Source: a virus
DNA: 64,000 bases
Strand: one strand, 5' to 3'
Virus record (IMG/VR): IMGVR_UViG_3300030099_006533
Part shown: one piece after another, positions 4,817 to 56,414 of the stretch
Layout: each line of letters opens with the position of its first letter
Numbering within the stretch: the first letter of the stretch is position 1
The notes under the pieces: generated by a model
Databases searched by the model: none
The model's input: the letters and a program-made list of their open reading frames with translations, nothing else
What the model was told of the DNA's origin: nothing
Translations under genes and position numbers: made by a program

Positions 4817-5134
4817 ATGACAATTCATCAAAACATGTTTGACAACGCACAAAAAGAAAAAATTGATGCTGCTTTTGAAAATGAGCAGCCATGGCCTGAA
4901 GGTCCTTTAAAAGACCTTCTTTTGGAATATGTTGGTACAAAGAAAGAAACAGAAGAAGTAACTGTTGAAATGATTGTTGAGCAGCTAGCCGAAGAGTTTC
5001 CTGAGTTTTTGATGGTAGTAGCAGAAGAAAATTGGATCAGAGGATACCAACAGGCAATCCATGATGTTGACCAGGGACAAAAAATGTTAGCTGAGCAAGC
5101 TAAAGAAAACAAAGCGTGTTTGAATGAAGGATGA
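4817..5134 (+). CDS. Hypothetical protein
   Basis: 105-aa ORF with RBS, first gene after the sigma70 promoter. Confidence 0.8.
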   Translation: MTIHQNMFDNAQKEKIDAAFENEQPWPEGPLKDLLLEYVGTKKETEEVTVEMIVEQLAEEFPEFLMVVAEENWIRGYQQAIHDVDQGQKMLAEQAKENKACLNEG

Positions 5135-5840
5135 AAATACTGCTAATGGTTTAGTTGGTTACATTAAGAAAACTCTAGAAGAGTCAGCTAAGACCCGAAG
5201 AGAATATAGCCTATACGGTACATCGTATGTGTATGTACAGGATTTTTTGCCTGATAACGTAAACGTGGTTGATGTGCTACAAACGATAGAAGACATTGTC
5301 CCGGGCCACATGGTAAAAGAAGTGGACACTATTTTTATTGGAGATTACCAACATCTAAAAGATAAAGCCGTCACAGCCATGTATGATTCAGGCGCGATTT
5401 ATATTTCTAATGAACAAAAAAGCAATGATGATATGGTTGACGATTTAGTGCATGAGATTGCTCATTCATTGGAGCAGCCATACGGGTATGCTATTTATTC
5501 TGATGGTGTAGTAGAAAAAGAATTCTTAGGCAAGCGAATGAAAATGTATGAATTGCTTTCTGCTTACAACTTCGTATCACAAAATAGCAAATCTGCATTT
5601 ATGCAGGTAGAATATGATCATTATTTTGATGAGTTGTTGTATAAAAAAATTGGGTACGAGAGACTAGCCCAATTACTCGTAGGTGTCTATACTACACCAT
5701 ATGCAGCGACCTCGCTGCGCGAATATTTTGCCACAGGATTTGAAGATTATTTTCTTCATGATGGGGAATATCTTAAAAAAATTAGTCCAAGATTGTTTAA
5801 TAAGATTGACAAATTAGTAAAAGGAGTGTATGATGGATAA
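5124..5840 (+). CDS. Putative zincin metallopeptidase (HExxH; MtfA/lethal-factor-like C-terminus)
   Basis: LVHEIAH, and YAATSLREYFATGFEDYF supplying a third-ligand Glu. Confidence 0.65.
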   Translation: MKDENTANGLVGYIKKTLEESAKTRREYSLYGTSYVYVQDFLPDNVNVVDVLQTIEDIVPGHMVKEVDTIFIGDYQHLKDKAVTAMYDSGAIYISNEQKSNDDMVDDLVHEIAHSLEQPYGYAIYSDGVVEKEFLGKRMKMYELLSAYNFVSQNSKSAFMQVEYDHYFDELLYKKIGYERLAQLLVGVYTTPYAATSLREYFATGFEDYFLHDGEYLKKISPRLFNKIDKLVKGVYDG

Positions 5841-6172: not shown

Positions 6173-6946
6173 ATGAAGCCACATATTTCATTTAGTGAAC
6201 TCAAAGATTGGAATACATGCGCATTTTATCACAAGCTTGTGCATCATGATAAACTAAAAGGTTTTGTTGGTAACGAGTACACTGCTTTTGGAAGCGCTAT
6301 TCATACTATTTGTGAAAAAAAGCTGCTTTCAACAGTCACTATTCCTGAAGAAGAGTTGTTCATTATGGAAGTCGAGAAGGAAGTAGAAAAGCTTCTTTCA
6401 GATTCCGTACAGGTAAATGACAAGTTGATTTTTGATCTAAAGCGGCAAGGCACAAAGATTCTTCCGCAGATTGAGCCGGCCTTAAAGGAGTATTTTCCAG
6501 ATGGATATGAAATTCTTACAACTGAAGAAGAGCTTATGGTTCCGATTGAAGGAAGCCCCAAAAAATTTAAAGGATTTATTGATGTTGTACTTCGGACCCC
6601 CGATGGCAAAATTCACGTTATTGACTGGAAATCCTGCTCTTGGGGATGGGATGCTCGTAAGCGCGCTGATCCTATGGTTGTATATCAGCTAATTTTTTAC
6701 AAGCACTTTTACGCGTTAAAGCATGGACTTGATCCTGCAAATATTGAAACGCACTTTGCACTTCTAAAGCGCACCGCTAAAGAAAAGAATGTCGAATTCT
6801 TTAGAGTAACTTCTGGCCCAAAAAGAACAGAAAATGCTCTAAAACTTTTACAAAAAGCTTTGTATAATATTACAAATTCTCGATTTATCAAGAATAAGAG
6901 TTCATGTTCGCGCTGTGCTTTTAAAAATACTGAGCACTGTCCGTGA
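6173..6946 (+). CDS. PD-(D/E)xK nuclease, Cas4/AddB-like with Fe-S staple cysteines
   Basis: ISFSEL..W..C, GSAIH, GFID...IDWKS, YQL..Y, C-terminal CSRC-x7-C. Confidence 0.85.
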   Translation: MKPHISFSELKDWNTCAFYHKLVHHDKLKGFVGNEYTAFGSAIHTICEKKLLSTVTIPEEELFIMEVEKEVEKLLSDSVQVNDKLIFDLKRQGTKILPQIEPALKEYFPDGYEILTTEEELMVPIEGSPKKFKGFIDVVLRTPDGKIHVIDWKSCSWGWDARKRADPMVVYQLIFYKHFYALKHGLDPANIETHFALLKRTAKEKNVEFFRVTSGPKRTENALKLLQKALYNITNSRFIKNKSSCSRCAFKNTEHCP

Positions 6947-6963: not shown

Positions 6964-8229
6964 GTGACAAAAAAGACAATTCTGACAATGTCAGATCACC
7001 CGCTTAGCCCTAGTGGAGTAGGGACGCAGACAAATTATGTACTGCAAGCGTTGTTGGAAACTGGCCGCTATCGAGTAATTTCACTCGGAGGCGCTATCAA
7101 GCACAATGACTATACTCCACAAAAGATTGAACCATACGCAGATGATTGGGTGGTTTTTCCGATTGATGGATATGGAAATCCTGAGATCCTAAGATCAATT
7201 CTTAGAACTGAGCGCCCTGATCTAGTATGGTTCATGACAGACCCGCGATTTTATCAGTGGCTATGGGAAATGGAAGACGAAGTTCGCTCTCTATGTCCTA
7301 TGTTATACTATCATGTATGGGATAACTACCCTTATCCAAAGTTTAACAAGGTGTGGTACGAATCCAATGATGTGATTGCTTCTATTTCAAAAGTAACTCA
7401 CGATATTGTGCAAACCGTTGCGCCTAGTGTAGATGCACATTATGTACCTCATGCAGTAGCCGAACAAATTTTTAAGCCACTACCGCCAGAGCAAGTGGCC
7501 ACATACGCAGAAACTGTTTTGCGCGCGGGTGATGTTTGGCAAGATAAGTTAACGTTTTTCTGGAACAACCGTAATGCTCGTCGCAAGCAAAGCGGTTCAC
7601 TTATTTGTTGGTTTAAAGAATTTTTAGATATTGTCGGACACGACAAGGCAAGGTTGATTATGCACACGGATCCAAAAGATCCTAATGGTCAAGATCTAAA
7701 TGCAATCTTAAACAACTTAGGTCTCGTAAATGGAGAGGTCTACTTGTCAGTAGCAAAGGTTCCGCCTGAGCAGATGGCGCTTTATTATAATATGGCAGAC
7801 TGCACCATCAATATCTCAGATGCTGAAGGGTTCGGCTTGGCAACTCTTGAATCATTGTCTTGCGGAACCCCAATCATCGTAAATATGACTGGCGGCCTAC
7901 AGGAACAGGTAACAGATGGTGAAAACTGGTTTGGAATCGGTCTAGAGCCAACAAGTAAGTCAATTATTGGTTCACAACAGGTGCCTTACATCTATGAAGA
8001 TCGTCTTGATGCTGCATCAGTGGTAGGCGCTCTAAAGAAGATGTATGATATGACACCCGAAGAGCGCGCCATGTTAGGTCTTCAAGGAAGAAGCCATGTA
8101 TCGACAAACTACGGGTTTTCTGCTTTTAAAAAGCAATGGGTCGACTTAGTAGATCAAACAGTTGAAAAGTACGGCTCATGGGATACACGAAAAGGCTACC
8201 AGTCTTGGGACTTTATGGAGATTAAATAA
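6964..8229 (+). CDS. Glycosyltransferase, GT4 (GT-B)
   Basis: SDHP..PSGVGTQ, NNRNARRKQ, EGFGLATLES (E-x7-E). Confidence 0.92.
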   Translation: MTKKTILTMSDHPLSPSGVGTQTNYVLQALLETGRYRVISLGGAIKHNDYTPQKIEPYADDWVVFPIDGYGNPEILRSILRTERPDLVWFMTDPRFYQWLWEMEDEVRSLCPMLYYHVWDNYPYPKFNKVWYESNDVIASISKVTHDIVQTVAPSVDAHYVPHAVAEQIFKPLPPEQVATYAETVLRAGDVWQDKLTFFWNNRNARRKQSGSLICWFKEFLDIVGHDKARLIMHTDPKDPNGQDLNAILNNLGLVNGEVYLSVAKVPPEQMALYYNMADCTINISDAEGFGLATLESLSCGTPIIVNMTGGLQEQVTDGENWFGIGLEPTSKSIIGSQQVPYIYEDRLDAASVVGALKKMYDMTPEERAMLGLQGRSHVSTNYGFSAFKKQWVDLVDQTVEKYGSWDTRKGYQSWDFMEIK

Positions 8230-9536
8230 TGAAAAAGAAAGTATTACTTAGAGGGCCGATTCTTACACGGAGCGGCTATGGCGAACAAGCAAGATTTGCA
8301 TATAGGGCCCTAAAAAGTCAGCCTGATAAATTTGATGTATTTGTTGTCCCCACTGGTTGGGGAAAAACCGGATGGATTGTAGATGACTCACCTGAGAGAG
8401 AGGAATTGGATAAGAATATTATCTCTACTTCTGAACATATTAAGCATTGCAATACAGTCGGAACGAACCCGTTCGACATCGCTATTCAGGTCACAATTCC
8501 TCAAGAGTGGGAAAAGCTAGCATCGGTAAATATTGGTTTCACTGCAGGAACAGAGACCACACACATCTCACTTCCGTGGATGCAAAAAGCAAATGAAATC
8601 GACCGCATCATTGCAGTTTCAGAACACACAAAGTCTGGTTTTGTAAATACGGTGTACACCGGTCAAAATGAGTTTGGCCAGGAAGTTCAAGTCAACTGCA
8701 CTACTCCCGTAGATGTTGTAAACTTTCCAGCTAAGACGGAGACTTCTCCTACACCTATTGAGCTAGATGTTGACACAGAATTTAACTTCTTATCAGTAGT
8801 TCAGTGGGGTCCTCGCAAAAATCTTGAAAATACAATTCTTGGATTTATCGAAGAGTTTAGAGACGATGAAAATGTAGGCTTGGTTGTTAAGGCTAACTTC
8901 ATGAGGAATTCATTGGTTGACCGAAATCTCTGTGAAACGAGACTAAAAAAGCTTAAAGAGTCTGCTGGTGAACACAAATGTAAAATTTATTTGCTTCACG
9001 GAAACATGACAGACGAAGAAATGCTTGGCCTTTATACCAATAAGAATATTCATGCGTTTATTAATATTGCTCATGGAGAAGGGTTTGGGCTACCTATCTT
9101 TGAAGCAGCTTATAGCGGATTGCCAATTATTGCACCAAACTGGGGTGGCCAAAAGGACTTCTTGAATGCAAGAGTCACACGAACCTCAAAGCTAAGATCA
9201 GGCAAAAAGAAGTCTAAGACAAAGCATAAGTTTTTAGCAACAGATGTCGAATACAGAATTGCACCAATTCAAAAAGAAGCAGTATGGGAAAACGTGCTTA
9301 TTGAACAGTCAATGTGGTGCTACCCTGTCGCGACATCCTACAGAAAGGCTATGCGTACTGTTTTTAAGAACTATGACCGAGCCATTGGCAAGTCAAAAAC
9401 TCTAAAGGAAATTATCACCACAGAGTTCTCAGAACGCAAGCAAAATGAAAAGTTTGTTAACTCAGTTCTGGAAGCTGCAGCAATTAGTGGCAATGTAGCA
9501 ACTCCTGGCCTGACAGATCAGGTTGTTACCCTATGA
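8229..9536 (+). CDS. Glycosyltransferase, GT4 (GT-B)
   Basis: GP...SGYG, QW..RKN, HGEGFGLPIFEA; TAATG coupling. Confidence 0.92.
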   Translation: MKKKVLLRGPILTRSGYGEQARFAYRALKSQPDKFDVFVVPTGWGKTGWIVDDSPEREELDKNIISTSEHIKHCNTVGTNPFDIAIQVTIPQEWEKLASVNIGFTAGTETTHISLPWMQKANEIDRIIAVSEHTKSGFVNTVYTGQNEFGQEVQVNCTTPVDVVNFPAKTETSPTPIELDVDTEFNFLSVVQWGPRKNLENTILGFIEEFRDDENVGLVVKANFMRNSLVDRNLCETRLKKLKESAGEHKCKIYLLHGNMTDEEMLGLYTNKNIHAFINIAHGEGFGLPIFEAAYSGLPIIAPNWGGQKDFLNARVTRTSKLRSGKKKSKTKHKFLATDVEYRIAPIQKEAVWENVLIEQSMWCYPVATSYRKAMRTVFKNYDRAIGKSKTLKEIITTEFSERKQNEKFVNSVLEAAAISGNVATPGLTDQVVTL

Positions 9537-10771
9537 CAAAGAAGATTCTTTATCAAGGCCAGCTAGGAGACCCATCTGGCTATGCTGTTGCCGGACGCGG
9601 CTACTTGAAATGCCTTTCGGATTATATTGATACGTTAGAAGAGCAGGTTGATTTAAAGCTGTTGTCCATTAGTGCAGATCAAGCTAGCTCTTTAACAGAA
9701 GAAGAGGCTAAGTTTCTTAACCGTTTTACTTTTTCTACTCAAGAAGAATATGATAAATGGGTATCTGATGGAAATTACCATTATGCGTTTCATCACCCTC
9801 CGACGTATGCGGTAAAGATTCCATCAACACGGCCTGCCTCGGCAAAGTCACTTACAACAACTTGCTTGACAGTGTGGGAAACGGATTCTGTTCCAAACAT
9901 CTGGGGTGATATTTTAGAACATCTAGACGTTGATAAGGTCATTGTTCCTTGTGAGTGGAATAAGGAGACGTTTGATTCGTTCTTCGCGTCTAGAGAGGCA
10001 GAGACCCCAGTACAAGTGGTACCACACTTGATTAATGAGACATTTATCGAAAATGACAAAATTGCGGAGGTTGCGGATGTCATTAAGGAAGATGAGTTCA
10101 CCGTATTAACAGTAGGCCAGTGGACAGACAGAAAGGCACTACAAAATGTTATTAAGTCTTTTTACATGGAGTTTAAAGAAACCCCGGAAGCAACTTTGAT
10201 TGTTAAGACATACGGCAATATTCAGGACACCCGCGCCGAGTATCAAGAGTATCAAAAAAATGAAATGCTAAGAGAGATCAAGAAGATCAAAAATTCTATG
10301 CTTACAGAGGATATGAATACTCCAAAATGTAAGCTGCATTTCTTGTATGGGCTTTTTCCAAAAGAGCAGATGAATTATCTTTATAAAGAAAGCAACCTAT
10401 TTGCTCTTCTAAGTAGGGCCGAGGGTTTTGGATTACCAATCGCAGAAGCACTTGCAAACGAAACACCAGTGCTGGTACACAACCAGGGAGGTCACGTCGG
10501 GTTTACAGATTTTGAGTCTAATTTTATAGTAAACTGCTACAAGACTCCTTCTTACTGCACGGTGTTTCCTCTTGTATACACTTGTGACAGCAACTGGTTT
10601 GAAACAGACTATCACTCTGCTAGAGAACAGTTTAGGAATGCTTTCGACGCATGGAAAGATGGGACTCTTTCCTCTCGTGCTACTACGGCCAAAAATTGCA
10701 TGTTTGAAGTTACAGCAGATAGCGTAAAGCTAGGAAAGCTTATCTACGACACAATTGTTCAGGAGCAGTAA
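9533..10771 (+). CDS. Glycosyltransferase, GT4 (GT-B)
   Basis: GQLGDPSGYA, VWETD, QWTDRKA, RAEGFGLPIAEA. Confidence 0.9.
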   Translation: MTKKILYQGQLGDPSGYAVAGRGYLKCLSDYIDTLEEQVDLKLLSISADQASSLTEEEAKFLNRFTFSTQEEYDKWVSDGNYHYAFHHPPTYAVKIPSTRPASAKSLTTTCLTVWETDSVPNIWGDILEHLDVDKVIVPCEWNKETFDSFFASREAETPVQVVPHLINETFIENDKIAEVADVIKEDEFTVLTVGQWTDRKALQNVIKSFYMEFKETPEATLIVKTYGNIQDTRAEYQEYQKNEMLREIKKIKNSMLTEDMNTPKCKLHFLYGLFPKEQMNYLYKESNLFALLSRAEGFGLPIAEALANETPVLVHNQGGHVGFTDFESNFIVNCYKTPSYCTVFPLVYTCDSNWFETDYHSAREQFRNAFDAWKDGTLSSRATTAKNCMFEVTADSVKLGKLIYDTIVQEQ

Positions 10772-11548
10772 ATGCTGCAGCAAACGAGAAGCATCAGGAC
10801 GTCCCTGAATGATATGCAGGACTATAAGCAAAAGATTGATTTTTTGCACAACTGTTATCATCAAAAAGATTGCTTTCTGTTGGCTCCTGGCCCATCTTTG
10901 GGCCATGTAGACCCTAAGCAAGTCAAAGAGAAGGTAGAGGAGCGGAGAGCTGCCGTATTCACTGTAAAGCAGGCATACTTAGAATACAAGAGCATGGCTG
11001 ACTTTCATTTCATCAATGATTGTAATCTGCCAATGATTAACGGATATCCGGGCTATATGTACAGCGCTAAGCGTGGTCCCGTCGTGATTGCGTCTAGTGG
11101 ATACACTGAAGAACATGCCCGCACAAGGTTTGCACCCGCACAACACTGGGACGTGTTTTGTAGGGTTCTAGATCCATTGGTATATCCAAACAATAACCTT
11201 GGGCGACTTTGTGAGAATTATGAGTTTGAGCGCGGCACATTCGACAAGATGATCGAAAGACCGTGTGGGCCAAGCATCACAATGGAAACCGTTATCTATA
11301 TGGCGGTTCATTGTGGGATCAAAAACATCTATGCAATTGGATGGGATTCTGGCTCAAAAGTTGGAGAGCACTTCTACGAAGGTGAAACCCATTTGACAAG
11401 TAATCGTAATTTTGAATACGAAATGGTACAAAAAGGCTCTGGGCCATTGTATAATTGGCTTAAGCAAAGAAATATTAACCTTCGCTTGGTTAGCAAAGTA
11501 AGTGCACTAAGCGATGAAATACCTCGCATCAAATTAAAGGATATCTAA
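10772..11548 (+). CDS. Maf/DUF115 (MptE-like) fold protein, putative nonulosonate transferase
   Basis: FLLAPGPSL, GPSITMETVIYMA..CG.KNIYAIGWD. Confidence 0.7.
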   Translation: MLQQTRSIRTSLNDMQDYKQKIDFLHNCYHQKDCFLLAPGPSLGHVDPKQVKEKVEERRAAVFTVKQAYLEYKSMADFHFINDCNLPMINGYPGYMYSAKRGPVVIASSGYTEEHARTRFAPAQHWDVFCRVLDPLVYPNNNLGRLCENYEFERGTFDKMIERPCGPSITMETVIYMAVHCGIKNIYAIGWDSGSKVGEHFYEGETHLTSNRNFEYEMVQKGSGPLYNWLKQRNINLRLVSKVSALSDEIPRIKLKDI

Positions 11549-12378
11549 TGTCTACATATATTATTGCTGAAATTGGAATTAATCACAATGGCTCACTCGA
11601 CATCGCAAAGCGACTTATCGATATTGCCGCTGTTGCTGGTTGCGATGCTGTAAAGTTTCAAAAGAGAAACCCAGACGTTTGTGTGCCGGAACATCAAAAG
11701 CACACCATGAGAGATACACCATGGGGCAGAATGACTTATCTTGATTACAAGTATCGTGTCGAGTTTGGCAAAGAAGAGTATGATGAGATTGATGCATATT
11801 GCCGTGATAAGGGAATTGCTTGGTCTGCTTCTCCTTGGGATATGGATAGTCTAGAGTTTTTAGGTCAATACGATTTGCCCTTTATTAAGGTGCCGTCTGC
11901 AATGATTACAAATGAAGAGTTGATGCGAGGTTGTGCGCGAACAGGAATGAAGGTGATTTTCTCAGCAGGAATGTCGACGCTTGATGAAACTGATCAGGCC
12001 GTCGAGTGGATGCGACAAGAAGGGGCAGAGTTTGCCCTACTGCACTGCAATTCAACATACCCAGCGCCACTAGAAGATTTGAATTTGCGATGTATTCAAA
12101 CTCTTCGTGAACGTTATGATTGCGAAGTTGGATACAGTGGCCACGAGTTTCGACTGGGCACTACTGTAGCCAGTGTATATCTTGGTGCGAGCATTCTTGA
12201 AAGGCACATTACATTAGACCGAACAATGTGGGGTTCTGACCATTTAGCGTCTGTAGAGCCGCAGGGGCTGATTAAGCTTGTAAAGGGTGTTAGGGAGCTA
12301 GAGGTGGCTCTTGGTGACGGCGTAAAGCGAGTTACTGAAGGTGAACTGCCAGTTCGAAAGAAGTTAAGAGGTGACTAG
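11548..12378 (+). CDS. neuB: NeuB-family nonulosonic (sialic) acid synthase, short form without C-terminal SAF domain
   Basis: IIAEIGINHNG, DAVKFQKR, HCNSTYP, GYSGHE, ERHITLD..MWGSDH; ends at 276 aa. Confidence 0.95.
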   Translation: MSTYIIAEIGINHNGSLDIAKRLIDIAAVAGCDAVKFQKRNPDVCVPEHQKHTMRDTPWGRMTYLDYKYRVEFGKEEYDEIDAYCRDKGIAWSASPWDMDSLEFLGQYDLPFIKVPSAMITNEELMRGCARTGMKVIFSAGMSTLDETDQAVEWMRQEGAEFALLHCNSTYPAPLEDLNLRCIQTLRERYDCEVGYSGHEFRLGTTVASVYLGASILERHITLDRTMWGSDHLASVEPQGLIKLVKGVRELEVALGDGVKRVTEGELPVRKKLRGD

Positions 12379-13093
12379 ATTGCAAGAGTGTTTTGTCCAT
12401 CATAGAGCGACAGTCCCGTTTCCACAGTGGGTGGTGCGGGATGCATCTTTATTGTTTAAAGGCTTTTGCCCAAATGCTGTGGTGAATGAACACATAGCAT
12501 ACAGTGACCGCGACGAATTTAAACAGTATTTGGGAACTACAGTTCTTATTATGGGTGGTGGCCCATCTACATTATCTTTAGATTTACAGCAGGAAGAGTA
12601 CGATTATCTGTGGACTTGCAATCATTTTTTTCGAAATCCTAAGTTGCAAAGTACTAAGGTAGACTTAGCAATGCTGATGGCCGAGGTCGATCCTTCGGAC
12701 GAGAAACTGATACAGTATAGAGAAACATTTCGGCCACTGTTAGGTTTTGAGGTACATGATAAGTGGTTCAATTACGAGTTTGACGATTACGATAAATATT
12801 TTTTTATGCATTCTAACTTTTATGGCCGCTTAGGTATCGGAGTTAGGATGATTCTTTTCGCCTCAGCCATCGGCGCCTCAACAGTTAAGTTTTGTGGTTT
12901 CGATGGGTTTAAGCCAATATATGAAGGAAACCATGCATTTCAACCCGGCAAAACTACGCTGCCATCAAACTTTTCAGAGCAGCAGTACCTTCAGCAGTAT
13001 GACTACTTTTGGCAGTACGCGCAACACTTTAACCCAAATACAAAGTACATCAATTTAGGAGGCGGCAGTGACTTACATAAAAGCATTAGATGA
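12371..13093 (+). CDS. CstII/GT42-like sialyltransferase-fold protein
   Basis: VLIMGGGPS, WTCNHFF, GVRMILFA.AIG...VKFCGFDG resemble the CstII pattern GNGPS/RCNQFY/GVYM...GIDFY (recalled, not aligned). Confidence 0.65.
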   Translation: MTRLQECFVHHRATVPFPQWVVRDASLLFKGFCPNAVVNEHIAYSDRDEFKQYLGTTVLIMGGGPSTLSLDLQQEEYDYLWTCNHFFRNPKLQSTKVDLAMLMAEVDPSDEKLIQYRETFRPLLGFEVHDKWFNYEFDDYDKYFFMHSNFYGRLGIGVRMILFASAIGASTVKFCGFDGFKPIYEGNHAFQPGKTTLPSNFSEQQYLQQYDYFWQYAQHFNPNTKYINLGGGSDLHKSIR

Positions 13094-13760
13094 TGTGGCC
13101 GTAATTATCCAAGCTCGGCTAGGTTCTCAAAGAGTACCCCAAAAGATGATTCGTCCGTTTGCCGATACTACCCTAACAGACATTGCGCTAGAAAAGATTA
13201 AAAAATGTACAAGTTTTCCACAAGAAAACTTTTACTTGTCTGTGCATGAACCTGAATTACTTAAAATTGGTGAAAAGCATAACGTTAATATCTACCGTCG
13301 ATCAGAAAAATCAGCCAAGTCAGAAGGTACGCCTATGACAGATATGTACGAATGGTGGGATAAATTGCCTCATAAATATTGTGTGCTAGTAAACGCCTGT
13401 GCTCCGTTTCTAACTTCAAAAACAATCGACACGTTTGTCAGGACATACTCATACACAGAATCAGATGGAATGTTTGGCGTAATTAGAAAAAAGAATTACT
13501 TTTGGAATTTCAACAAGGATCTGATAACTCCACTAACGGAAGCGGTGATGAATACCAAAACGGTTGCACCAGTGTATGAAGCCGCACATTGTCTCTATGC
13601 CGGTAGACTAGACAGAATTAAAGAAGGAATATGGATGGGAGACTTTAATATTCCCGGTGATATTAAACTGTTTCAAATGGAAGAGCAAGAAGTTTTTGAC
13701 ATTGATTATGAATGGCAATTTACAATGGCTGAAAGTTTATACATGTGGAATAACAAGTGA
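13068..13760 (+). CDS. neuA: CMP-nonulosonate (acylneuraminate) cytidylyltransferase
   Basis: IIQARLGSQRVPQKMIRPF, RRSEKSA, terminal FDIDYEWQF; GGAGG RBS, GTG start. Confidence 0.88.
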   Translation: MTYIKALDDVAVIIQARLGSQRVPQKMIRPFADTTLTDIALEKIKKCTSFPQENFYLSVHEPELLKIGEKHNVNIYRRSEKSAKSEGTPMTDMYEWWDKLPHKYCVLVNACAPFLTSKTIDTFVRTYSYTESDGMFGVIRKKNYFWNFNKDLITPLTEAVMNTKTVAPVYEAAHCLYAGRLDRIKEGIWMGDFNIPGDIKLFQMEEQEVFDIDYEWQFTMAESLYMWNNK

Positions 13761-14893
13761 AAATTTTATTGTTAAATGATACAATCATATCAAAAAATTT
13801 AGGTTGTCAATTAGTGTCTCACATGCTAAGAGACACCTTTAAGCAAGTGTATGATGAGGTTGAAATAACTTTTGTCAACACACTACAAAAGAGTTATCTT
13901 GAGCAGCGCTCAAAGTTTAAAAAAGAATATGATGTGGTTTATGTTAATGGGGAAGGTTCTATGTCCGCCGGCGGCGAATTAAAACTTTACGAAGCTGTAA
14001 AAGCGTCTTTGAAACGAGCCCCTGCAGTGTATCTGTGCAATTTTACGTTCGACCCCAGAGTTCAGTTTCAAAATTTTGTGCGCCGCGGAGAGATATCAAA
14101 ATGGCTTTCTGTGTTTAAACACTGTAAGGCCGTCACTGTGCGAGACCCAATATCATATGAATTTTTAAAGAATGCCGGCGTAAATAATTTGTACCTAGCA
14201 CCAGATATAGGAACAGCTATATATGATTTAAGTGAAAAAAAGCAGAAGAATGTTAGAAAAAGAATTATGTTCGGCGCCGGCTCTTTTACTAAAAGTTCAC
14301 TTTTTAATAGTGAAAAAAATGTTAACAATTTTTCTAAAATTATAAATCATTTTGCTCAAAAAGGATACGAGTGCGACATCCTTGATTGGCCCTCAAATCC
14401 TGTGTCCGATGGACAATTTTTAAGAGGCATTAAAGGACCAAACATATTTCACAAAAAATTAAATTTTCAAGATTATTACGAAAATTGTAAAGACTCACTT
14501 TTAAATGTAACTGGTCGCCATCACGGTAGTGTTATGAGTTATGCTGCTAGTTGCCCCTTTATGACTTATAAAAGTAATATGTGGAAAACAGAAGGAGATT
14601 TAATGTTTTATCAAGGTTCTATGCAAGACTATTGGTTGCAAGCCGACATTAAAAATTTTAACACCGACCAATGGATTGCAAAAATTGAACACAATCTTAA
14701 TAGGTATGAAGAGATATGTGAACAAAATCGTCGCATATTTTCCTTTTTGTCTCAATATCATTTAGATCAAGTAAAGATTGTAAAAGAAAGTATCTACCCG
14801 ATAGCCCAATCAGAAGAACTTTCAAAATGTATGCAGGAAGCAAATAGATATTTGCTAAATTTGACTCAAAACGGAAAAATGCTATCATGGTAA
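13757..14893 (+). CDS. Polysaccharide pyruvyltransferase-family protein
   Basis: NLGCQL, NGEGS, VTVRD..SY..L, APD, GRHHG; noticeably AT-rich. Confidence 0.75.
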   Translation: MKILLLNDTIISKNLGCQLVSHMLRDTFKQVYDEVEITFVNTLQKSYLEQRSKFKKEYDVVYVNGEGSMSAGGELKLYEAVKASLKRAPAVYLCNFTFDPRVQFQNFVRRGEISKWLSVFKHCKAVTVRDPISYEFLKNAGVNNLYLAPDIGTAIYDLSEKKQKNVRKRIMFGAGSFTKSSLFNSEKNVNNFSKIINHFAQKGYECDILDWPSNPVSDGQFLRGIKGPNIFHKKLNFQDYYENCKDSLLNVTGRHHGSVMSYAASCPFMTYKSNMWKTEGDLMFYQGSMQDYWLQADIKNFNTDQWIAKIEHNLNRYEEICEQNRRIFSFLSQYHLDQVKIVKESIYPIAQSEELSKCMQEANRYLLNLTQNGKMLSW

Positions 14894-15792
14894 TTGATTC
14901 AAAACGGTGGGTAACCGATAAAGAGTGTGAGTTTTACTGCGGCCAGCAGAAGGCAATTAATCGTTATAACGCTAAGATTACTGAAAGAAGAGAGAAATAT
15001 AAACAGTTTAATCATGAAGGGCTTGAAAAATACCAAGACGTAATCGATAGCATCAATACAAAAGGATATGCCAAGATTGAAAACTTTTTTGATTTAAAAC
15101 AACTAGATCTTTTGGCAAATGAATTTAGACAAAAACTTAAAACTGGTGAGCACATTAAAAGCGTTCAAGCCGGAAGCCATCTGCAACTTGATCAGCCCTT
15201 TTTAAATTCTGATTATGTCCTTGATATCGCACTGGACGAACGTCTTGTAGACATTGCGACAACTTACTACAGATGTACCCCAGCGCTAGGAACTTGCAAT
15301 CTCAGAAGATCGGACGTAAGATACACTAAAAACAACGGCACAAATAAGTTTCATAGAGACTTCAATAGCCCTGTAAAATTCATAAAGTTTTTTGTGTACT
15401 TAAATGATGTCAACAAAGACAATGGGCCCTTTACTTACGTGAAGGGTTCTAATATCAAGATGCCGCGTAATTGGCAGCTGCAGCATAGATGGGAAGATTC
15501 TCAAATTGTACAAATGTATGGCTCTGAATCAATTGTGCATCTGACAGCAAACTACGGAGATCTGTTAATTGCAACAACAAACGGATTTCACAAGGGTAGC
15601 CAGATTACTAAAGGTACTAGAGACATGCTGACCTTAAATTATGTGATAGCACCAGAGGTCAGAAATCAGAGCGTTGACGAAGAGTCAAAAAGATTTTTAA
15701 TAAGCAAAGAACAATTTAAGTCTCTCGAAGATTGGCAAGTCCCATTAGTAGACTTTTTAAATGTGGAAGGTACAACAAATGAATTACATTGA
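14887..15792 (+). CDS. 2OG-Fe(II) dioxygenase, PhyH family
   Basis: FHRD, IKFFVYLNDV..DNGPF.YVKGS, GDLLI....GFHKG...R. Confidence 0.85.
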   Translation: MVIDSKRWVTDKECEFYCGQQKAINRYNAKITERREKYKQFNHEGLEKYQDVIDSINTKGYAKIENFFDLKQLDLLANEFRQKLKTGEHIKSVQAGSHLQLDQPFLNSDYVLDIALDERLVDIATTYYRCTPALGTCNLRRSDVRYTKNNGTNKFHRDFNSPVKFIKFFVYLNDVNKDNGPFTYVKGSNIKMPRNWQLQHRWEDSQIVQMYGSESIVHLTANYGDLLIATTNGFHKGSQITKGTRDMLTLNYVIAPEVRNQSVDEESKRFLISKEQFKSLEDWQVPLVDFLNVEGTTNELH

Positions 15793-16123
15793 AGAGCGTC
15801 CTTGGGGCAAGTTCGAAAACCTATTGGACACAGACTACTGTAAGGTAAAAAGAATCACAGTAAATCCTGGCCAGCGTCTAAGCTACCAATATCACCACCA
15901 GCGCGGCGAGGTATGGACAGTAGTCAAAGGTGTTGCCAAGGTGACACTAGACGATGCTGAAGGCTGGTACATCGAGGGCGAAGTAATTCAAATTCCAATT
16001 GGTGTACGCCATCGCGTCGAAAACGATACCGAACATGAATTGATTTTTATCGAGGTGCAACACGGAACCTACTTTGGTGAAGACGATATTGTTAGACTAA
16101 GTGACGATTATAACAGAGAATAA
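15779..16123 (+). CDS. Stand-alone cupin, type II mannose-6-phosphate isomerase C-terminal domain-like
   Basis: EERPWG, VKRITVNPGQRLSYQYHHQRGEVW, HRVEN, EVQHG.YFGEDDIVR..DDY. Confidence 0.9.
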   Translation: MNYIEERPWGKFENLLDTDYCKVKRITVNPGQRLSYQYHHQRGEVWTVVKGVAKVTLDDAEGWYIEGEVIQIPIGVRHRVENDTEHELIFIEVQHGTYFGEDDIVRLSDDYNRE

Positions 16124-16125
16124 AT

Positions 16126-16154
16126 TTTAAAAATAAAACAATATCGTTTATAAT
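16126..16154 (+). promoter_or_regulatory. Possible sigma70 promoter
   Basis: TTTAAA, 17 nt, TATAAT (16149-16154), intergenic; weak -35. Confidence 0.45.
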
Positions 16155-16172
16155 GTATTAAAGGAAAATAAT

Positions 16173-16478
16173 ATGATTGTTTTTATTGACATTGATGAGA
16201 CAATTGCTAACACACCTGAAAGCAGAGACTATTCTTTATCTACGCCGATTGTAGAGAATATCCAAAAAGCTAATAAGTATTATGAAAACGGTCACACAGT
16301 GGTTTACTGGACAGCCCGCGGCACGGGTAGTGGAATCGACTGGTATGAAGTAACCAAAAAACAACTTGATGCCTGGGGCGTTAAGTACCATGATTTAAAA
16401 TTGGGAAAACCAATTTATGATTTGTTCATTGACGATAAAGCAATGAATCCCGCACATTGGAAAAAGGAGCAAAAATGA
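16173..16478 (+). CDS. Small capless HAD-family phosphatase (capsule-biosynthesis phosphatase-like)
   Basis: DIDETIA (DxDxT), WTARG, GKP.YDLFIDD. Confidence 0.85.
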   Translation: MIVFIDIDETIANTPESRDYSLSTPIVENIQKANKYYENGHTVVYWTARGTGSGIDWYEVTKKQLDAWGVKYHDLKLGKPIYDLFIDDKAMNPAHWKKEQK

Positions 16479-20625: not shown

Positions 20626-23600
20626 ATGGCAGAAGATACTTCTAGTTCAGAAACTACAGAAGAAACAGAAACATCATCCGAAGAACCAAGCTTCATTGAC
20701 TATCAAACGATTCCAACGTATGAAAGTCAATGTGTGCCTGAAGAACCCGGCCCAGCTATACCTGTGGTCGATTGTCCGACGTGTGTTCCAAATCCTGCTG
20801 CTCCAAACATTGATTGGACTAAGACGACTGAAAATGAACCATTCTTAAACAAAAGAAAGTGTACATATTCAATCAATCTAAGAACGAAATACGAAGGAAC
20901 TGGTGGTGAGTCCACCCTTCAGGCCCGCCTCGATGAATATACCAAGGCGGGAGCGATTAGACTGTTAGCTCATTTTAATAAAGCTTTGGACGAAAACACG
21001 GTAGCTATTGCTACTAAGCTAGCAGGCGCCACAGATCACTTTATTCCTCCCCGCCGCAAATTGAAAATGCGAGTCTTGATCGAGATTCCCGCAAATGAGT
21101 TTGACATGTTGCCAAACTCATCCGATGTTCCCGAGATCTCACCAGAAATTGAAGAGGCTATTCCTCCGCGAGAGGTTGTACAGACTGGTGAAGTTGAGAT
21201 GCAAGACTTCGACCAACAAGTTGACAAACTTGTCGAAGGCCTCCGCGTGTACGCTAAGTATCAAGCAATCTATTACCAGACACAGAGAGGATCAATTAGG
21301 TTTCCAGGGGGTGCTCCAGTCAACTTAAATACAGAAGCGGATTATCTGCGCAAGGTAAAGCCTATTCTGTACGAGTTTTTAAGGACTAAGGGATGGGTAC
21401 TCAGAGAATCTAGAGGAGAATCGGGGCGAGCTAGTTCGGATACCGGTCTTAAAGAAGCAAACAATGTAGAGTTTGGCTTAGCGGAAGACGGCACCCTTGA
21501 ACGGATCATTGTTACAGCGCATGGTTCTTGCCGAGAAACACCATCAGAGTATAAAGCAATTCAAATTTCTTCTCTTAGAGGAACTGAGCCATTTAATCGA
21601 CCCACTACGTTACATTGGCTAATAAACATTCAAGAAGCTGTCGGGGCCCTAATTCAACGACAAGGCATGATGAAGTGGACCGACTTCGCACAAAAGTTTG
21701 TTTTTCCAACACCTGTTATTAATCAAGGCGCCGACATGACAAGTGCTGTCTCCGCTATAGCTTCAGCTGCAGTCGGGCAAGCTACAGAAGCAGATCTTGA
21801 TGCTATTACAAATGCTGTCGGAAAGATGACAGAAACTGAAAAAATTGAAGCCAAGACTCCGGGGTCGCTTCAAAAAGTTGGTGATAAATTAAATTCAGTC
21901 CGCAGAAGTATGGGAATCCCAGATGCTGAAACCATTGGAGATCACTTAACATCACCGGCTCCCCGTGAAAGAACACTTACAGAAGGTGCCTTTGCTGAAG
22001 TGGAAAGAAATGCCGACCAGTGGCCATATAAATCAACAGATCCAAACTCTCCAACCTACAGAGGCCCCCAGCAAATTTGGGATCCCACTCTCAATGACGG
22101 CGCCGGCGGCTATAGAATGGAGTCAGAAAGTGAGGCGCACAATCGTTCTAATGCAAATCTAGCAGCAGAAAATGCCCATTTAGTAACTTCAGGTCAATTA
22201 ATTGAAGGCTTATGTGACGATCCGCTAGGTGCAGTGGGCCAATATTTTGCAGATTTGGGTGACGATTTTATGAACGAACTGTTCAGCATTTGGGATGCTG
22301 TAATGTACCAGTTCCATAACTTTATTTGTATGTCCCCAGAAGAACGCGAGGAGATGCTTCAGAAATTAAAAGACGCAAATTCTGAAATGATGTCTTCTGC
22401 TGTGCGGGAAGCTTTGAAAATTTTTGTTGGCTTTTTCGAAATGCTTAATACTCTGCAGTATAACTTAGCAGAGATTCAAAACATTGAAGGGCTTTATAGA
22501 AAAGGACTAGATGAGATTACTTTCTGCGGCCTATTTGACCTTATGCTGGCTTTCTTGGATTGTCTCATGCAAGGCTTTGCGCTCGATGAGGTCCTTGAAG
22601 TACTAATCGCTGCCGCTCTGGCTTCAATGCCTGCGGTGGAACTTGAAAAAGTATTTGTTGGCCTACCTCCCGAAGATCAAGCACAAATTCTTGCGAAGGT
22701 CGAAGCAGCAATTGGTGCGCACACACTTCCATGGCAATCCAAGGTAGGAGATCCCGACCCTGTAGCAGAAGCACCCTTTAGCAATAGGCCATCTATGGGC
22801 AATAAGGGCTCCAATATAGCTTGGGGTGGCCCAGGTAGTCCTGTAGCGAAAGAGAAAGCAGAATCAAGACAATCTCAGACTGCTGTAACTCCGGCCCTCC
22901 AAGCTCTTGCCCGCGGCTTTGAGGACGCCATGAGAGCCTCTATAAAGATTGCAAGAGAGTTTGAGACAAAAGTAAGGCAAGAATCAATCGAAGATCCACA
23001 CGACACCCGCCCAGCAGCGACTATTGTCGATGATGTTAGGACCGAGTACTTTTCTGGAGAAGAATATTTTGGACTAGGTTATTATATCACAGACAGCTTC
23101 GAAGTTAGTGTTACGGATCAAGCAGCAATGACTCATGTATTGTCAATAGGGCAGCACGCTAACGCCTTAGCAGGTTACTTTACCGAGTATGAGATCGAGG
23201 GTTACAAAGACGCGGGAATTACGGGAGAACAGATCGCGTCAGCATCTGGTGATTATATCTCCGCTTTACAAGATTTAATCAATAGAGTCAACAGCGCGCA
23301 TACAGTCACAAACTCAACTGATGGCTCCGTCGACACCCCTGCTGGTCCTTGGACTGGGTCTGAATCAGATGACCCATTCCCCGATAAGTCAGATCGATGG
23401 AAGAACGAGTACTACGCAGAGTATTCAAGATCGCTTGGCGCCCTACAAGCCGAAGCAGAGTTGCTGCCAGAACCAGCTAGGTCAGAACAGTTAGCTGTTG
23501 CTGAAGCTGGCGCAGACACGGCCGCTCGTCTATATGCCGATTCTATTGAGGCGCTCGATAAAGGAAGAATCGGAGACCCAGGACCCTTTGGTACTCGCGG

Positions 23601-26600
23601 CTCACTAGGTGCAGCACTTGGTGGAACTGTTTCGGTTGTTCTTCAAGAATATATCAAGGCCATTCTCGAATATTACTCAGAAAAAGGCTTTGATGCTTTG
23701 ATGGATGTGTTGGAAGACCTACCCGGCGCCGCCATCGTTGCAAAAATTATTGCCCTTCTTGATTGCGCAATTCCGCCTCTTTGGGATCCGCCACTGCTTG
23801 ACTTTCTAAATACTCTTGAAATCGACTTCTGCAACATGGTTCTTAGGTTGGTAGCCCCGGGCCCGCCCAATCTACAGATGCCAAACTGGAAAGATTTCTT
23901 TAGAATCTTATTGCTGATAGCGTATCAAATCGCAATTTACATTATCTTTAGGTTGTTGTTGTGGCTGTTGACAAAGATCGTGATGATTTTGTTTGATTCT
24001 TTGTGTTCAATGCTTGAAAAACTAGCAGAAGCAGCCATGAATGCTGTCGCAGATCAAGTTTGTGCTGAATTAAGTGAAGGTGGCGAGTTTGCTCAAAATA
24101 CTGCTATTGCAATGGAGGCTGCCGGTCATTGTGAGGATCCTCCTCGTGGATTCCTTGACATGGTTAAAGGCGCCTTCTGCGGCCCTGACGCCACAGATGA
24201 AGAGGCACAAACAGTAGCAAATAACGCTATGAGGGGCCTAGGTTCTGTCACAGCTGCCGATGCTGCAAAGATGGCTAATGAAGGCGCGGTTACGCAACTT
24301 ATCGCAGACATTTCAACGGTGCTCACAGGTGGAGAGCTTACAAACTTGCTCTTGGGTAACTACGACCCAGTCGCGACCTCTCTTGTACAAGAAGTCGTAG
24401 AGTCAGAAAATCCAGTGTTTGCTTCTGTGCTCGGTTCCAACACACAAATTGCTGACTTGTTCAAAAACATTGGTAATCTTTTACCACACCAGTTCAAGAT
24501 GCAGCTGCGAGCTACACAGGACGAAATCCCGGCCGTCCGACCTGCAAACCCGATGCTGTGTAAAACTAAGGACGAACTAGATGAGTTTAGAAATCTAAGA
24601 GAACAAATCTTGCTGAGTAAAGACGGGACAACGCCAGAGCAGGCTCAGCAACAGTTTGATGCCATGCGCGGCCGCGCCCTTAACGATATCTCACAGATTG
24701 CAGACATTATGCAGGGCGGCGTTGAGAACTTTATTGAAAATAACATGCCTCCATATGTTGGAGAGCCCGATGAAAACGGCTGTATTCCAGCAGATGCTCT
24801 AGTACCACGCGATCCACCTTTGATGATGGATCTTATTGGAGCAGCAAATGAGGGACTATATGACATTGTTGGTCGCGCTTATGCTCGTGATATCAACGGC
24901 CGCGGCGGCTTTATGTCAATGATTCTGTCAGACACACTTGGTTTTCCATGGCGCCGTCACCAATTTGAGTCAATTTTTAATCGTAACGTAGTAGACTACG
25001 AAATGGAGAGCTTAAAACGATTTGGAATTGAAGACCCTGAAACGCTAGCTGGTACCGCTGCTGAACAATGGCTTAAGCCAATCTACCAGCGTGAACGTGG
25101 CCATTACCCAAAGTATGTCGGGCAGTATTTTAAAGAATATCTTAGGGACAGTAAGCACAATCCTGACGGGTATGTTTCTACATCTGAATTCACACCTACA
25201 GAATATTCATATTTTAATGTTGAAGATGTTCCGCTTGGTTCAATGATCGGACAAGGCGCATATCCTCGTGATGACAGAGGAAACTATATGGGCACAGAAG
25301 AGAATCCGTTTGTTTCTCCTGGCGCCAAAAGTCCCGATCTGGTACTAAAGTTTAGAGACAATGCTCGCGGAATCAAGCAAGATAACCTCAGCGAGAATCT
25401 ACAGTTTATTGAAGGGTTCAATCTTGAGTACGGTTCTTACATAATTGAAGATAACAATGAAACAGCAACACCCGTTACTAATATTGACAATGTATATCAT
25501 CTACGAGTTGTAGATGTCACAAATCCATTCATGAACCTTCCAGCTGGGTTTGCGACCGCTTCGGCAGAGCCTGACTTCGATATTACACAAGGAGTAGAAG
25601 ATGTTCGGTTTGAACTAACAATCACAGGCAGCTTAACAGAAGAAGCAGAGGCTTTAAGAAATACACATACACTTGATACTTTGCCTTTGTCGCCACAAAT
25701 TAATTGCTGGAACGACTTTTTGCATAAAAAGTATAGTTCTTTGGGCCTGACCGATGAACAGGTAAATCAATTTAACGCCAGTCTGCCATTTGCAGGTTCT
25801 GCTGACACCGGCTATACCGGCCACAAAACTCACGACAACATGATGAATACGCTGTTAGACTATTTCGCAAACATGATTGCGGGCAACAGTGAGGCATACG
25901 AATATGGATTTACTCCCGGCACCGACGATGATTTAACAGCCACAGATAAAATGTACATGAGTCCTGACGGCGACAAGCCGTTTATGAACTATATCCTAGA
26001 AGACCTAGCGCCTGAGTTAGGAGACTCTTATATGATTTTTGGAAGTTTACCTAACATCAAAAAGATTAGCAAGTACATTGAAGACAATCAGATTATGGGC
26101 CAATCAAACCACGCCAGGATGCACTTCTTAAATCCAGCAGATCATGGTGGCTCATGGCTTCGTCCGCCTTATTACATTGAGCCTCCGAAATATGAGGGCT
26201 GGCTTGGAATCAGGGACTTGTTATTGCCAGAGGTAGACGGCAAGGAACCCAAGCGGTATCCAGTCTGTAATTTTGAAGATATCAAAGAAAGGGTGGATGA
26301 ATTAACAAAGAAGATGCCCGATGATCCTAGACTAGCAGAATGCCCAGACTGTGTTATTGAGCTTCCGTACTCTAGAATTTTAGACCGTTCCTCTGCTGCC
26401 GGTATGGAAGGCCCCATCATTGCAATGATTAGAATTTATTGTGTTGAAGAGCTGATCAAGGCGATGCCAATGTTTAGTAAGTTCAAGGCAAAAATTCCAG
26501 AGGTATTGGATTACACATACGTTGAATATATTCTTGCTACGATGAAGGAAGACTTCATGCAGAACCTGAGTCGCAAGGGCGGCTTCCTTCGCGGCGAAGC

Positions 26601-44501: not shown

Positions 44502-45545
44502 ATGGCATTTTTCAATAAAAAAGAAGATGTTATAGATATTAAGCTCACACAATACGGAAAGAGCTTGTTGGCCAAAGGAAAATTCAAGCCAGTATCCTAT
44601 GCATTCTTTGATGACAATGTTCTGTATGATATTGCTTATGCTGGTGACAGTGAGGATCAGAACGACATAGAGCCTAGAATCCAAGAAGATACCCCATCTT
44701 TACGAGCCCAGCACATTTTTTACGGTGCAGAAACCGAAGTGAAACGAATCGTCAATGAAGTCCGCGGCACAAATGGTGAAGTTCCAACAGTACAGCCAGT
44801 GGCAGACAAACATTATGCTTTATCAGCCCCGCTAGGAACTTCTGCTCTACACACTACGGAGATTCCAGCATGGCAAATTAGATTTTTTGGCTCAGAACTA
44901 TTGGGTTCTATAGAGTATGCAACGGGTTCTCATCCAACAACAAAGATTCCGCAACTAAGATCGGAAATCGTTTACAAAACACAAATACGAGACGTAAATG
45001 CACCAGCACCAGTTCGCCAAGAATCAATGAGAATGGCCCAGCAAGAATATACAGACACTACGTCTTTGTTTCAAGACGGTACATATTTCTACACAGTAGG
45101 CGATCAGCTATTGATTGAGATTGATGAAAAAAATACAGACTTCATGAATGACAATTTTATGATTGAAATTTTTGAAGTAGAGGAAGTTGATGTATCTGGG
45201 AGCATTAGCACACCCTCAGTCTTGAACCCAACAAAAAAAGAGGTGTTGAGACCATTGAATTTTAGAAAAAAAAGAAGTAACGTGGTCAACAATGTTTTGG
45301 TTGATTATGACGACACTCGGGCTACGCCTGAATCTATGGATGACGTTTCATACTATTTTGATGTACGAGTAGATTCTGAAATTCCAACAGAAACTCTGTG
45401 CGCTATTTATCAACAGCTAAAGTCTGCCGGCGAAGAACTCGGTTCTCTAGAAACACTAGACTTAAACTGCCCAGAAGCAGAGGTACCATTTAACCTATAC
45501 GCCAGCAATATTACTGATGAGGATATTGAAGAATGCAAAGATTAA
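44502..45545 (+). CDS. Baseplate/fibre-attachment structural protein
   Basis: N-terminus MAFFNKKEDVIDIKLTQYGKSLLAKG..K...YAFFDD is paralogous to the 51962 N-terminus. Confidence 0.7.
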   Translation: MAFFNKKEDVIDIKLTQYGKSLLAKGKFKPVSYAFFDDNVLYDIAYAGDSEDQNDIEPRIQEDTPSLRAQHIFYGAETEVKRIVNEVRGTNGEVPTVQPVADKHYALSAPLGTSALHTTEIPAWQIRFFGSELLGSIEYATGSHPTTKIPQLRSEIVYKTQIRDVNAPAPVRQESMRMAQQEYTDTTSLFQDGTYFYTVGDQLLIEIDEKNTDFMNDNFMIEIFEVEEVDVSGSISTPSVLNPTKKEVLRPLNFRKKRSNVVNNVLVDYDDTRATPESMDDVSYYFDVRVDSEIPTETLCAIYQQLKSAGEELGSLETLDLNCPEAEVPFNLYASNITDEDIEECKD

Positions 45546-55997: not shown

Positions 55998-56414
55998 ATG
56001 TCTAAAATTAGAGAAGAAAAGCACGCAAAAGCTGCTTGGATTACAAGATGGAGAAAAGAGGATAAACCCTGGGGCTCAGAAATGATCTGGGCTAGTTTTA
56101 CTGCTGGCCACGGAAAATTACTAACTTTACAAGAAGGAAAAAGAACAAGCCTTAAATACAATCCACAAAAAAGTGAATCACTAATCGTTCTTACGGGCAA
56201 AGTTCACGCTAAGTATGGTGATGAGTATACGCTTGATGACCCTGTGGGGCACCCTTGGCATGAGGCTATGCTTGAGCCCGGGATGACTCTTAACGTACAG
56301 TCTGGCTGCCCCTATCGTCTAACGGCAGTAGAGGAGTCGACTATTGTAGAGATAGGAAACCACTTGGCAGACAAGCCTGTTAGAATCGAAGACGACTATG
56401 GACGGTCTGAATGA
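55998..56414 (+). CDS. Cupin-fold protein with degenerate metal site
   Basis: DKPWG, LLTLQEG.RTSL.Y, E...V..G, VEIG, VRIEDDYGR. Confidence 0.75.
   Translation: MSKIREEKHAKAAWITRWRKEDKPWGSEMIWASFTAGHGKLLTLQEGKRTSLKYNPQKSESLIVLTGKVHAKYGDEYTLDDPVGHPWHEAMLEPGMTLNVQSGCPYRLTAVEESTIVEIGNHLADKPVRIEDDYGRSE

Follow-up and report, generated by a model that had tools for sequence, protein, structure and literature searches.

Nonulosonic acids are sugars known from the cell surface of animals, algae and some bacteria, and a phage that encodes a synthase for them without recognisable genes for the synthase's precursors raises the question of what that enzyme is fed and what it makes. The case considered here lies in a 64,000-nucleotide stretch of viral DNA (IMG/VR record IMGVR_UViG_3300030099_006533; the window). 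Its interval 11548–16478 is the sugar-supply half of a hypervariable phage glycan island that is found on hundreds of viral contigs (Table 1). It encodes a NeuB-family synthase without the SAF domain (the type designated NeuBs), a GT42-like protein (family P2fam), a cytidine monophosphate (CMP) synthetase that belongs to the island core (CMPt), a small cupin and a short haloacid dehalogenase (HAD) phosphatase (mini-HAD). The initial annotation had proposed that these genes form a self-contained 9-phosphate route to KDN (3-deoxy-D-glycero-D-galacto-nonulosonate, also written Kdn). The best reading of the present analysis, and a probable one, is a synthase–phosphatase–activator route that is fed with hexose phosphate by the host or the phage and proceeds through phosphorylated intermediates. 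KDN is its most likely product, with about an even chance of being the right one.

In the proposed route, the SAF-less NeuB would condense phosphoenolpyruvate (PEP) with a hexose 6-phosphate, most likely mannose 6-phosphate (Man-6-P), to form a nonulosonate 9-phosphate such as KDN 9-phosphate (KDN-9-P). The mini-HAD would remove the phosphate, and the divergent CMP synthetase would form the CMP-sugar. The cupin, which is of the phosphomannose isomerase (PMI) type, may top up Man-6-P from fructose 6-phosphate (Fru-6-P), an optional step, as Man-6-P can also be drawn from the host. Two sialyltransferase-fold genes flank NeuB and three GT4 glycosyltransferase genes precede it; their products would transfer the sugar to an acceptor of the virion or of the host's surface.

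The synthase matches PF03102 with 261 bits (cutoff 22.1) over positions 1–241 of 241. The absence of a SAF domain noted in the initial annotation is confirmed, as the Pfam scan found no such domain, the protein ends where it would start, and the alignment to TIGR03569 (N-acetylneuraminate synthase) ends at position 274 of 329. The scores lie below the equivalog cutoffs of both TIGR03569 (268.7 vs 399.65) and TIGR03586 (PseI; 197.8 vs 340.25). More than 100 close homologues are 273–289 residues long, mostly 275–277, and this conserved length rules out a truncation by frameshift; the next gene overlaps the stop codon. The alignment shows no variation at the putative metal-ligand histidines (H199, H220), K36/K114 or E218.

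In phylogenetic trees, all SAF-less NeuB proteins, including those of phages, form a single clade (support 100), within which the phage proteins are sister to an enzyme from a Neomarinimicrobiota metagenome-assembled genome (MAG), L093. The residues KFQKR, R55-x-TPWG, YSGHE, ERH and W228 are common to the phage enzyme and 78 cellular members of this clade. Several of these signature residues are basic and are missing from SAF-bearing paralogues; four that are specific to the SAF-less clade, K39, R40, R55 and R219, are candidate phosphate-binding residues.

The gene neighbourhoods of the cellular members also bear on the chemistry. Homologues collected from a scan of 185,000 species genomes are 52–70% identical to the phage enzyme, and 80 of them were examined for neighbours. 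In 33 of the 80, a HAD of ~170 residues is encoded on the same strand as NeuB and no more than ~6 kb from it, typically a short way upstream (median offset −0.6 kb). The best PDB match of a representative cellular HAD, ahead of KdsC enzymes, is 3e81/3e8m (1.2e-32), which we take to be BT1713, the KDN-9-P phosphatase of Bacteroides thetaiotaomicron. The nearest cellular relative, L093 (70% identity), belongs to an operon of NeuB, a CMP synthetase, a BT1713-like HAD and a WaaA-like transferase. Triple fusions of 686 residues, each joining a CMP synthetase to a HAD and a SAF-less NeuB, occur in Planobispora, Streptosporangium and Nonomuraea (L105:6765-8825, L103, L148), and in a Eubacterium MAG a CMP synthetase–HAD fusion adjoins NeuB. 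Similar to the phage island, loci such as the L093 operon and the actinomycete fusions combine a NeuB of the same clade with the same triad of activities. Unlike the phage island, they use a HAD of the KdsC/KDN9PP type and CMP synthetases only ~18% identical to the phage core enzyme, and their enzymes are uncharacterised.

The CMP synthetase of the window matches PF02348 with 46.3 bits (cutoff 22.6). Its top PDB match is PpNeuA, the CMP-Kdn synthetase of Prymnesium parvum (2.3e-9), and a family profile that included four more canonical cellular sequences is far nearer to CMP-sialic acid synthetases (CMAS; 1qwj, 9t4z; 1e-40) than to KdsB (1e-11). Kdn-specific CMP synthetases have a gatekeeper arginine (Arg196 in PpNeuA) and lack an otherwise invariant P-loop lysine (PMC12934254). 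This lysine is missing in 13 of the 14 phage variants, and the window enzyme has Gln21. At the gatekeeper column the phage enzymes have Asn, Thr, Gln, Lys, Asp or Pro and in no case Leu, Met or Ile, in an alignment that a nearby 4-residue insertion makes unsafe. Many partner synthetases of the cellular SAF-less NeuB proteins carry the Kdn-type markers: 20 that adjoin a SAF-less NeuB have Arg at the Arg196 column, and those within the triple fusions combine the gatekeeper Arg with loss of the P-loop lysine. A 3-deoxy-D-manno-octulosonate (Kdo) pathway is rejected, both by the CMAS-like profile and by the separate, canonical KdsA kept in two of the five genomes tested that have such NeuB loci (G011, NeuBs type; G013, NeuBs2 type); because both genomes keep KdsA, their NeuB loci are not simply a Kdo pathway.

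A comparative set of 80 related viral loci provides evidence that these genes travel together. The island core consists of a PD-(D/E)XK nuclease, GT4 glycosyltransferases, the SAF-less NeuB, the GT42-like gene, the CMP synthetase and, usually, the mini-HAD. Nearly all of the ~80 loci have NeuB, the GT42-like gene and the CMP synthetase, 52 have the mini-HAD within 10 kb, and minimal islands (L074, L076–L078) consist of HAD-NeuBs-P2fam-CMPt and glycosyltransferases only. The mini-HAD is capless, as the initial annotation had described, and has all four motifs in 101 residues: DxDxT (D6/D8), T47, K79 and DD87-88. D6, D8, T47, R49, K79 and D88 do not vary among 13 diverse relatives, and D87 is Cys in some. 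The gene is directly beside NeuB in 15 loci found from NeuB and in 16 of 80 loci found from the HAD itself, 45 of which have NeuB within 10 kb. It is present in all five long relatives of the window; one of them, G005, has no cupin, yet its mini-HAD lies directly upstream of the SAF-less NeuB.

The window was reported to contain no NeuC and no precursor genes for pseudaminic (Pse) or legionaminic (Leg) acid, and this also stands. Pfam and PHROG scans of most window open reading frames (ORFs) of at least ~130 residues, with the giant ORFs (20626-28530, 32358-44453, 45533-49393, 59017-62169) left out, found no Epimerase_2 domain, and tblastn searches of the window with the PseB, DegT, GNAT, PIG-L, Fmt, GDP-mannose dehydratase (GMD) and short-chain dehydrogenase/reductase (SDR) proteins of related islands gave no match. 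Precursor genes elsewhere in the genome, which the initial annotation had named as the finding that would speak against its proposal, were looked for in the five long relatives. None of the five has Epimerase_2, and PseB-type and DegT genes are absent from G001, G003 and G005, which are 89%, 100% and 94% complete. It follows that the route must begin with a metabolite of the host.

Additional synthases are frequent in the related islands. A second NeuB paralogue occurs in 43 loci; many of these paralogues bear SAF and lie beside PseB, DegT, GNAT, PIG-L and formyltransferase genes, a set that probably constitutes a separate Pse/Leg-like route. Some loci have a second SAF-less NeuB together with two SDRs and a PMI cupin. 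NeuB-SAF-cupin fusions of ~490 residues, with a cupin of the D-lyxose/mannose-isomerase type (PF07385 above cutoff), are found in L053:16458-17912, L071:12510-14003 and ~7 other related viral loci, and the mini-HAD is directly beside the fusion in 7. These fusions independently tie an aldose–ketose isomerase to NeuB chemistry.

The cupin of the window was described as PMI-like with intact metal ligands, and it matches PF01050 with 108.8 bits (cutoff 23.6) and TIGR01479 at its C-terminal positions 361–467, the PMI domain of GMP/PMI enzymes. The metal-ligand motifs RPWG, HHxRxE and HR.EN are readable in the translation, and the protein is a predicted type II PMI. Downstream of NeuB, the P2fam profile matches the CstI/CstII structures 2p2v (3.3e-8) and 1ro7 (3.8e-7) over ~150 residues and contains the motifs GGGPS and G.DG; a Pfam scan of this family gave no match, and by this profile its product is a putative GT42-like sialyltransferase. 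Upstream of NeuB, the AlphaFold model of the DUF115-like protein (pLDDT 82.8) matches MptE, Maf (5mu5), CstII and CstI in Foldseek at TM-scores of 0.4–0.5, and a profile search against PDB sequences found no match. The modelled fold makes this protein a candidate nonulosonate transferase. In several relatives a single protein of ~690 residues comprises both the third GT4 and the Maf/DUF115-like domain (L012:7465-9528, L004:7618-9714), which are encoded by two abutting genes in the window (9533-11548).

Several observations weigh against the proposed route, or at least against its KDN version. First, the Bacteroides type of KDN-9-P synthase, represented in the tree by four Bacteroidota NeuB proteins that adjoin BT1713-like HADs and were located with a BT1713 peptide pattern, forms a clade of its own (support 98) outside the SAF-less clade. 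These four proteins are 35–41% identical to the phage NeuB; three are ~344 residues long, and both of the two scanned with Pfam carry SAF. The one of their four HADs that was tested against the PDB scores 193 bits to 3e81. The initial annotation had read the missing SAF domain as a pointer to KDN, and this argument fails: because the BT1713-linked synthases carry SAF and belong to a separate clade, loss of SAF is ruled out as a mark of KDN synthases. The clade that does hold the phage enzyme contains no characterised member. Many of its cellular members also have an SDR, a class III aminotransferase and a split transketolase, and the clade may not make a single product.

Second, the mini-HAD is not the Bacteroides-type KDN-9-P phosphatase that had been envisaged. 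Its profile matches 9iqw ('capsule biosynthesis protein', 1.6e-24) best and then 1xpj, the search of the PDB returned neither KdsC nor BT1713, and the protein lies outside the KdsC/KDN9PP family; its sole NCBIfam match is TIGR01689, with 28.7 against a cutoff of 162. It is also found in phage islands without NeuB, as many of the HAD-seeded loci pair it with GMD and no NeuB, and the complete 298-kb virus G009 has the mini-HAD and no NeuB. In the window, the island genes overlap or abut except at one 49-nt gap before the HAD gene, and this gap, between cupin and HAD, holds a promoter-like site. It is possible that the mini-HAD acts upstream of the synthase or in a general role. Third, the cupin, counted as a step of the route in the initial annotation, is present and intact in the window but is optional among relatives, being found in only 12–20 of 80 related islands. 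Fourth, the window CMP synthetase has Asn rather than the Kdn-type Arg at the gatekeeper column, where the 4-residue insertion makes the alignment uncertain. What endures of the original proposal is the recurrent core of synthase, phosphatase and CMP synthetase and the linkage of cellular NeuB genes to BT1713-like HADs; the arguments drawn from SAF, HAD family and cupin do not.

Two alternatives fit part of these observations. The first retains the phosphorylated logic with another sugar, such that N-acetylmannosamine 6-phosphate would yield N-acetylneuraminic acid (Neu5Ac), or some other host sugar phosphate would yield a new 8–10-carbon ulosonate. A clade without a characterised member leaves room for this, some clade members are associated with SIS-type sugar-phosphate isomerases, aminotransferases, SDRs or a split transketolase, and the phage gatekeeper residue is Asn, Thr or Gln instead of Arg. 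However, NanE, NanK and GNE-like genes were not recognised among the annotated island genes, and the isomerase of the window is a PMI-type cupin and no other kind. A polar residue lies in the C5 pocket, the P-loop lysine of the Neu5Ac type is absent, and the proximity of the CMP-synthetase profile to CMAS and the KdsA genes of G011 and G013 count against a Kdo-like sugar. A product other than KDN from the same chemistry is therefore considered unlikely.

The second alternative dispenses with the phosphorylated substrate. The HAD would act before the synthase, converting Man-6-P to mannose, or would serve as a general sugar-phosphate phosphatase of the island, and the SAF-less NeuB would join a free sugar to PEP; the product may still be KDN. 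The occurrence of the HAD in GMD islands without NeuB, its position next to the cupin in many loci and the promoter-like site, which suggests a transcription unit of its own, are all consistent with such a role, and the NeuB-SAF-cupin fusions imply free-sugar chemistry for those paralogues. Against it, cellular NeuB proteins of the same clade are fused or adjacent to phosphatases of the KDN9PP/KdsC type, which act on the ulosonate phosphate, and the four basic residues specific to the SAF-less clade are candidate phosphate binders. An unphosphorylated route is thus given a low probability. A Pse/Leg-type synthase acting on host-supplied 6-deoxy-diacetamido precursors, to which a PseB-like gene beside the SAF-less NeuB and without a second NeuB in five loci (L029, L030, L037, L046, L047) and a weak PseF match of the CMP synthetase (1.5e-9) might point, is very improbable, as the full PseB/DegT/GNAT/PIG-L sets bring their own SAF-bearing NeuB paralogue, the PseI score falls far short of its cutoff, and the polar C5 pocket misfits an N-acyl group.

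The preferred route, through a nonulosonate 9-phosphate, works like the KDN pathways of Bacteroides and Prymnesium, with a synthase and a phosphatase from outside those enzyme families. In B. thetaiotaomicron, as summarised in PMC6200933 (citing Wang et al. 2008), the pathway comprises the KDN-9-P synthase BT1714, the KDN-9-P phosphatase BT1713 and a CMP-KDN synthetase. Like the phage set, it combines a NeuB-family synthase, a C0 HAD phosphatase and a CTP_transf_3 synthetase, draws on central metabolites and has no need of NeuC. In contrast, synthases of the BT1714 type carry SAF and fall in a separate clade, and the 101-residue phage HAD is of another subfamily; the phage set also includes a PMI cupin and genes of sialyltransferase fold, in a genome of lytic type. 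P. parvum uses a Kdn-9-P synthetase and PpNeuA (PMC6200933, PMC12934254). Among solved structures, the phage CMP synthetase matches PpNeuA best, and both lack the Neu5Ac-type P-loop lysine, whereas at the aligned gatekeeper column the phage enzyme has Asn, not Arg. For the transfer step, the two phage proteins encoded beside NeuB share fold and the GxGPS and G.D motifs with the Campylobacter GT42 enzymes CstI/CstII and the Maf flagellin nonulosonate transferases, but their identity to these is very low, and one is fused to a GT4 in relatives.

If the route is as proposed, a self-sufficient viral nonulosonate pathway would represent a new class of auxiliary function in ocean phages. It would also provide a function for a large uncharacterised clade of SAF-less NeuB proteins that spans many bacterial phyla, and a case of non-orthologous replacement of a pathway phosphatase. 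The small enzymes could serve in CMP-KDN production. A broader scenario is tentative: a highly abundant group of uncultured marine myoviruses may start from Fru-6-P and PEP and make CMP-KDN, or else a new 5-hydroxy nonulosonate, by means of an uncharacterised clade of SAF-less synthases and a non-orthologous 101-residue phosphatase, after which two sialyltransferase-fold enzymes would 'sialylate' the virion or the infected cell. The variability of the island, with its extra Pse/Leg-type routes and methyl-, formyl- and pyruvyltransferases, would then reflect an arms race over surface glycans.

The source of the window is an abundant, uncultured marine myovirus of ~160–200 kb. This follows from the identical NeuB protein on 46 contigs (the longest 190 kb), at least 8,000 NeuB relatives at E ≤1e-10 and nearly 300 IMG/VR stretches that encode a NeuB relative, as well as from a baseplate protein with ~31% identity to proteins of Flavobacterium and Microcystis myoviruses and a megablast search of the glycan island against GenBank phages that found no near-identical DNA. 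A tblastn search with the phage NeuB matched two uncultured viruses and one bacterial record only. The sizeable ORFs of the window are all on the + strand and closely packed, and they also encode PhoH, a gp25-like baseplate protein, a baseplate wedge protein, a primase and proteins of 2634 and 4031 residues.

Table 1. Genes and sites of the glycan island in the window; locus counts refer to the 80 related viral loci.
Feature	Position	Strand	Evidence and occurrence
PD-(D/E)XK nuclease	6173..6946	+	PF12705 7e-17; conserved left neighbour of island, same position in 55/80 loci
Three GT4 glycosyltransferases	6964-8229, 8229-9536, 9533-10771	+	PF00534 5e-12, 2e-7, 9e-13; kept in 50-58/80 loci
Maf/DUF115/CstII-fold protein, candidate nonulosonate transferase	10772..11548	+	PF01973 7e-4 (below cutoff); predicted fold
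SAF-less NeuB-family synthase (NeuBs), 276 aa	11548..12378	+	PF03102 1.2e-77
GT42-like sialyltransferase-fold protein (P2fam), 240 aa	12371..13093	+	Family profile vs CstI/CstII; in 67-77 of ~80 loci
Divergent CMP-nonulosonate synthetase (predicted)	13068..13760	+	PF02348 6e-12
Polysaccharide pyruvyl transferase (CsaB-like), accessory	13757..14893	+	PF04230 2.4e-18; in 0/80 loci
PhyH-type Fe(II)/2-oxoglutarate dioxygenase, accessory tailoring enzyme	14887..15792	+	PF05721 1.7e-11; in 30-32/80 loci
Stand-alone type II PMI-like cupin	15761..16123 (alternative ATG 15779)	+	PF01050 2.2e-31; in 12-20/80 loci
Promoter-like site	16126..16154	+	TTTAAA-17-TATAAT, 10/12 positions; consensus match only
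Capless HAD phosphatase (mini-HAD), 101 aa	16173..16478	+	Four HAD motifs; phrog_1238 4.8e-27

Related gene arrangements were observed in other genomes. The jumbo phage locus L241 (genome G009) keeps the same backbone of PD-(D/E)XK nuclease, GT4, mini-HAD and GMD, and a NeuB-family gene is absent from it. Among cellular genomes, ~15–20 other loci of Bacteroidota, Ignavibacteriota and Chlorobiota, together with L131, L136 and L155, combine a Glyphos_transf-like gene, CTP_transf_3, a split transketolase, a class III aminotransferase, an SDR, a BT1713-like HAD, a SAF-less NeuB and a fatty-acid hydroxylase; the product of this cluster may be an amino-ulosonate lipid head group.

Several further ORFs of the window are of possible relevance. 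The ORF at 477-989, 5 kb upstream of the island, is cytidylyltransferase-like (PF01467, 1e-14) and could be an NMN (nicotinamide mononucleotide) adenylyltransferase or TagD-like. Just upstream of the island, an ORF of 238 residues (5124-5840) has zinc-metallopeptidase matches below cutoff (PF07737 6.8e-6, PF06167 9e-4) and is kept in 27 related loci. A second small cupin-like ORF (55998-56414) has no Pfam match and shares 30% identity with the PMI-type cupin family across 112 residues; a weak PMI-like match 21 kb upstream of NeuB in G003 may be its counterpart. Finally, the giant ORFs at 20626-28530 and 32358-44453, near the baseplate genes, possibly encode fibre or surface proteins and are candidate glycan acceptors.

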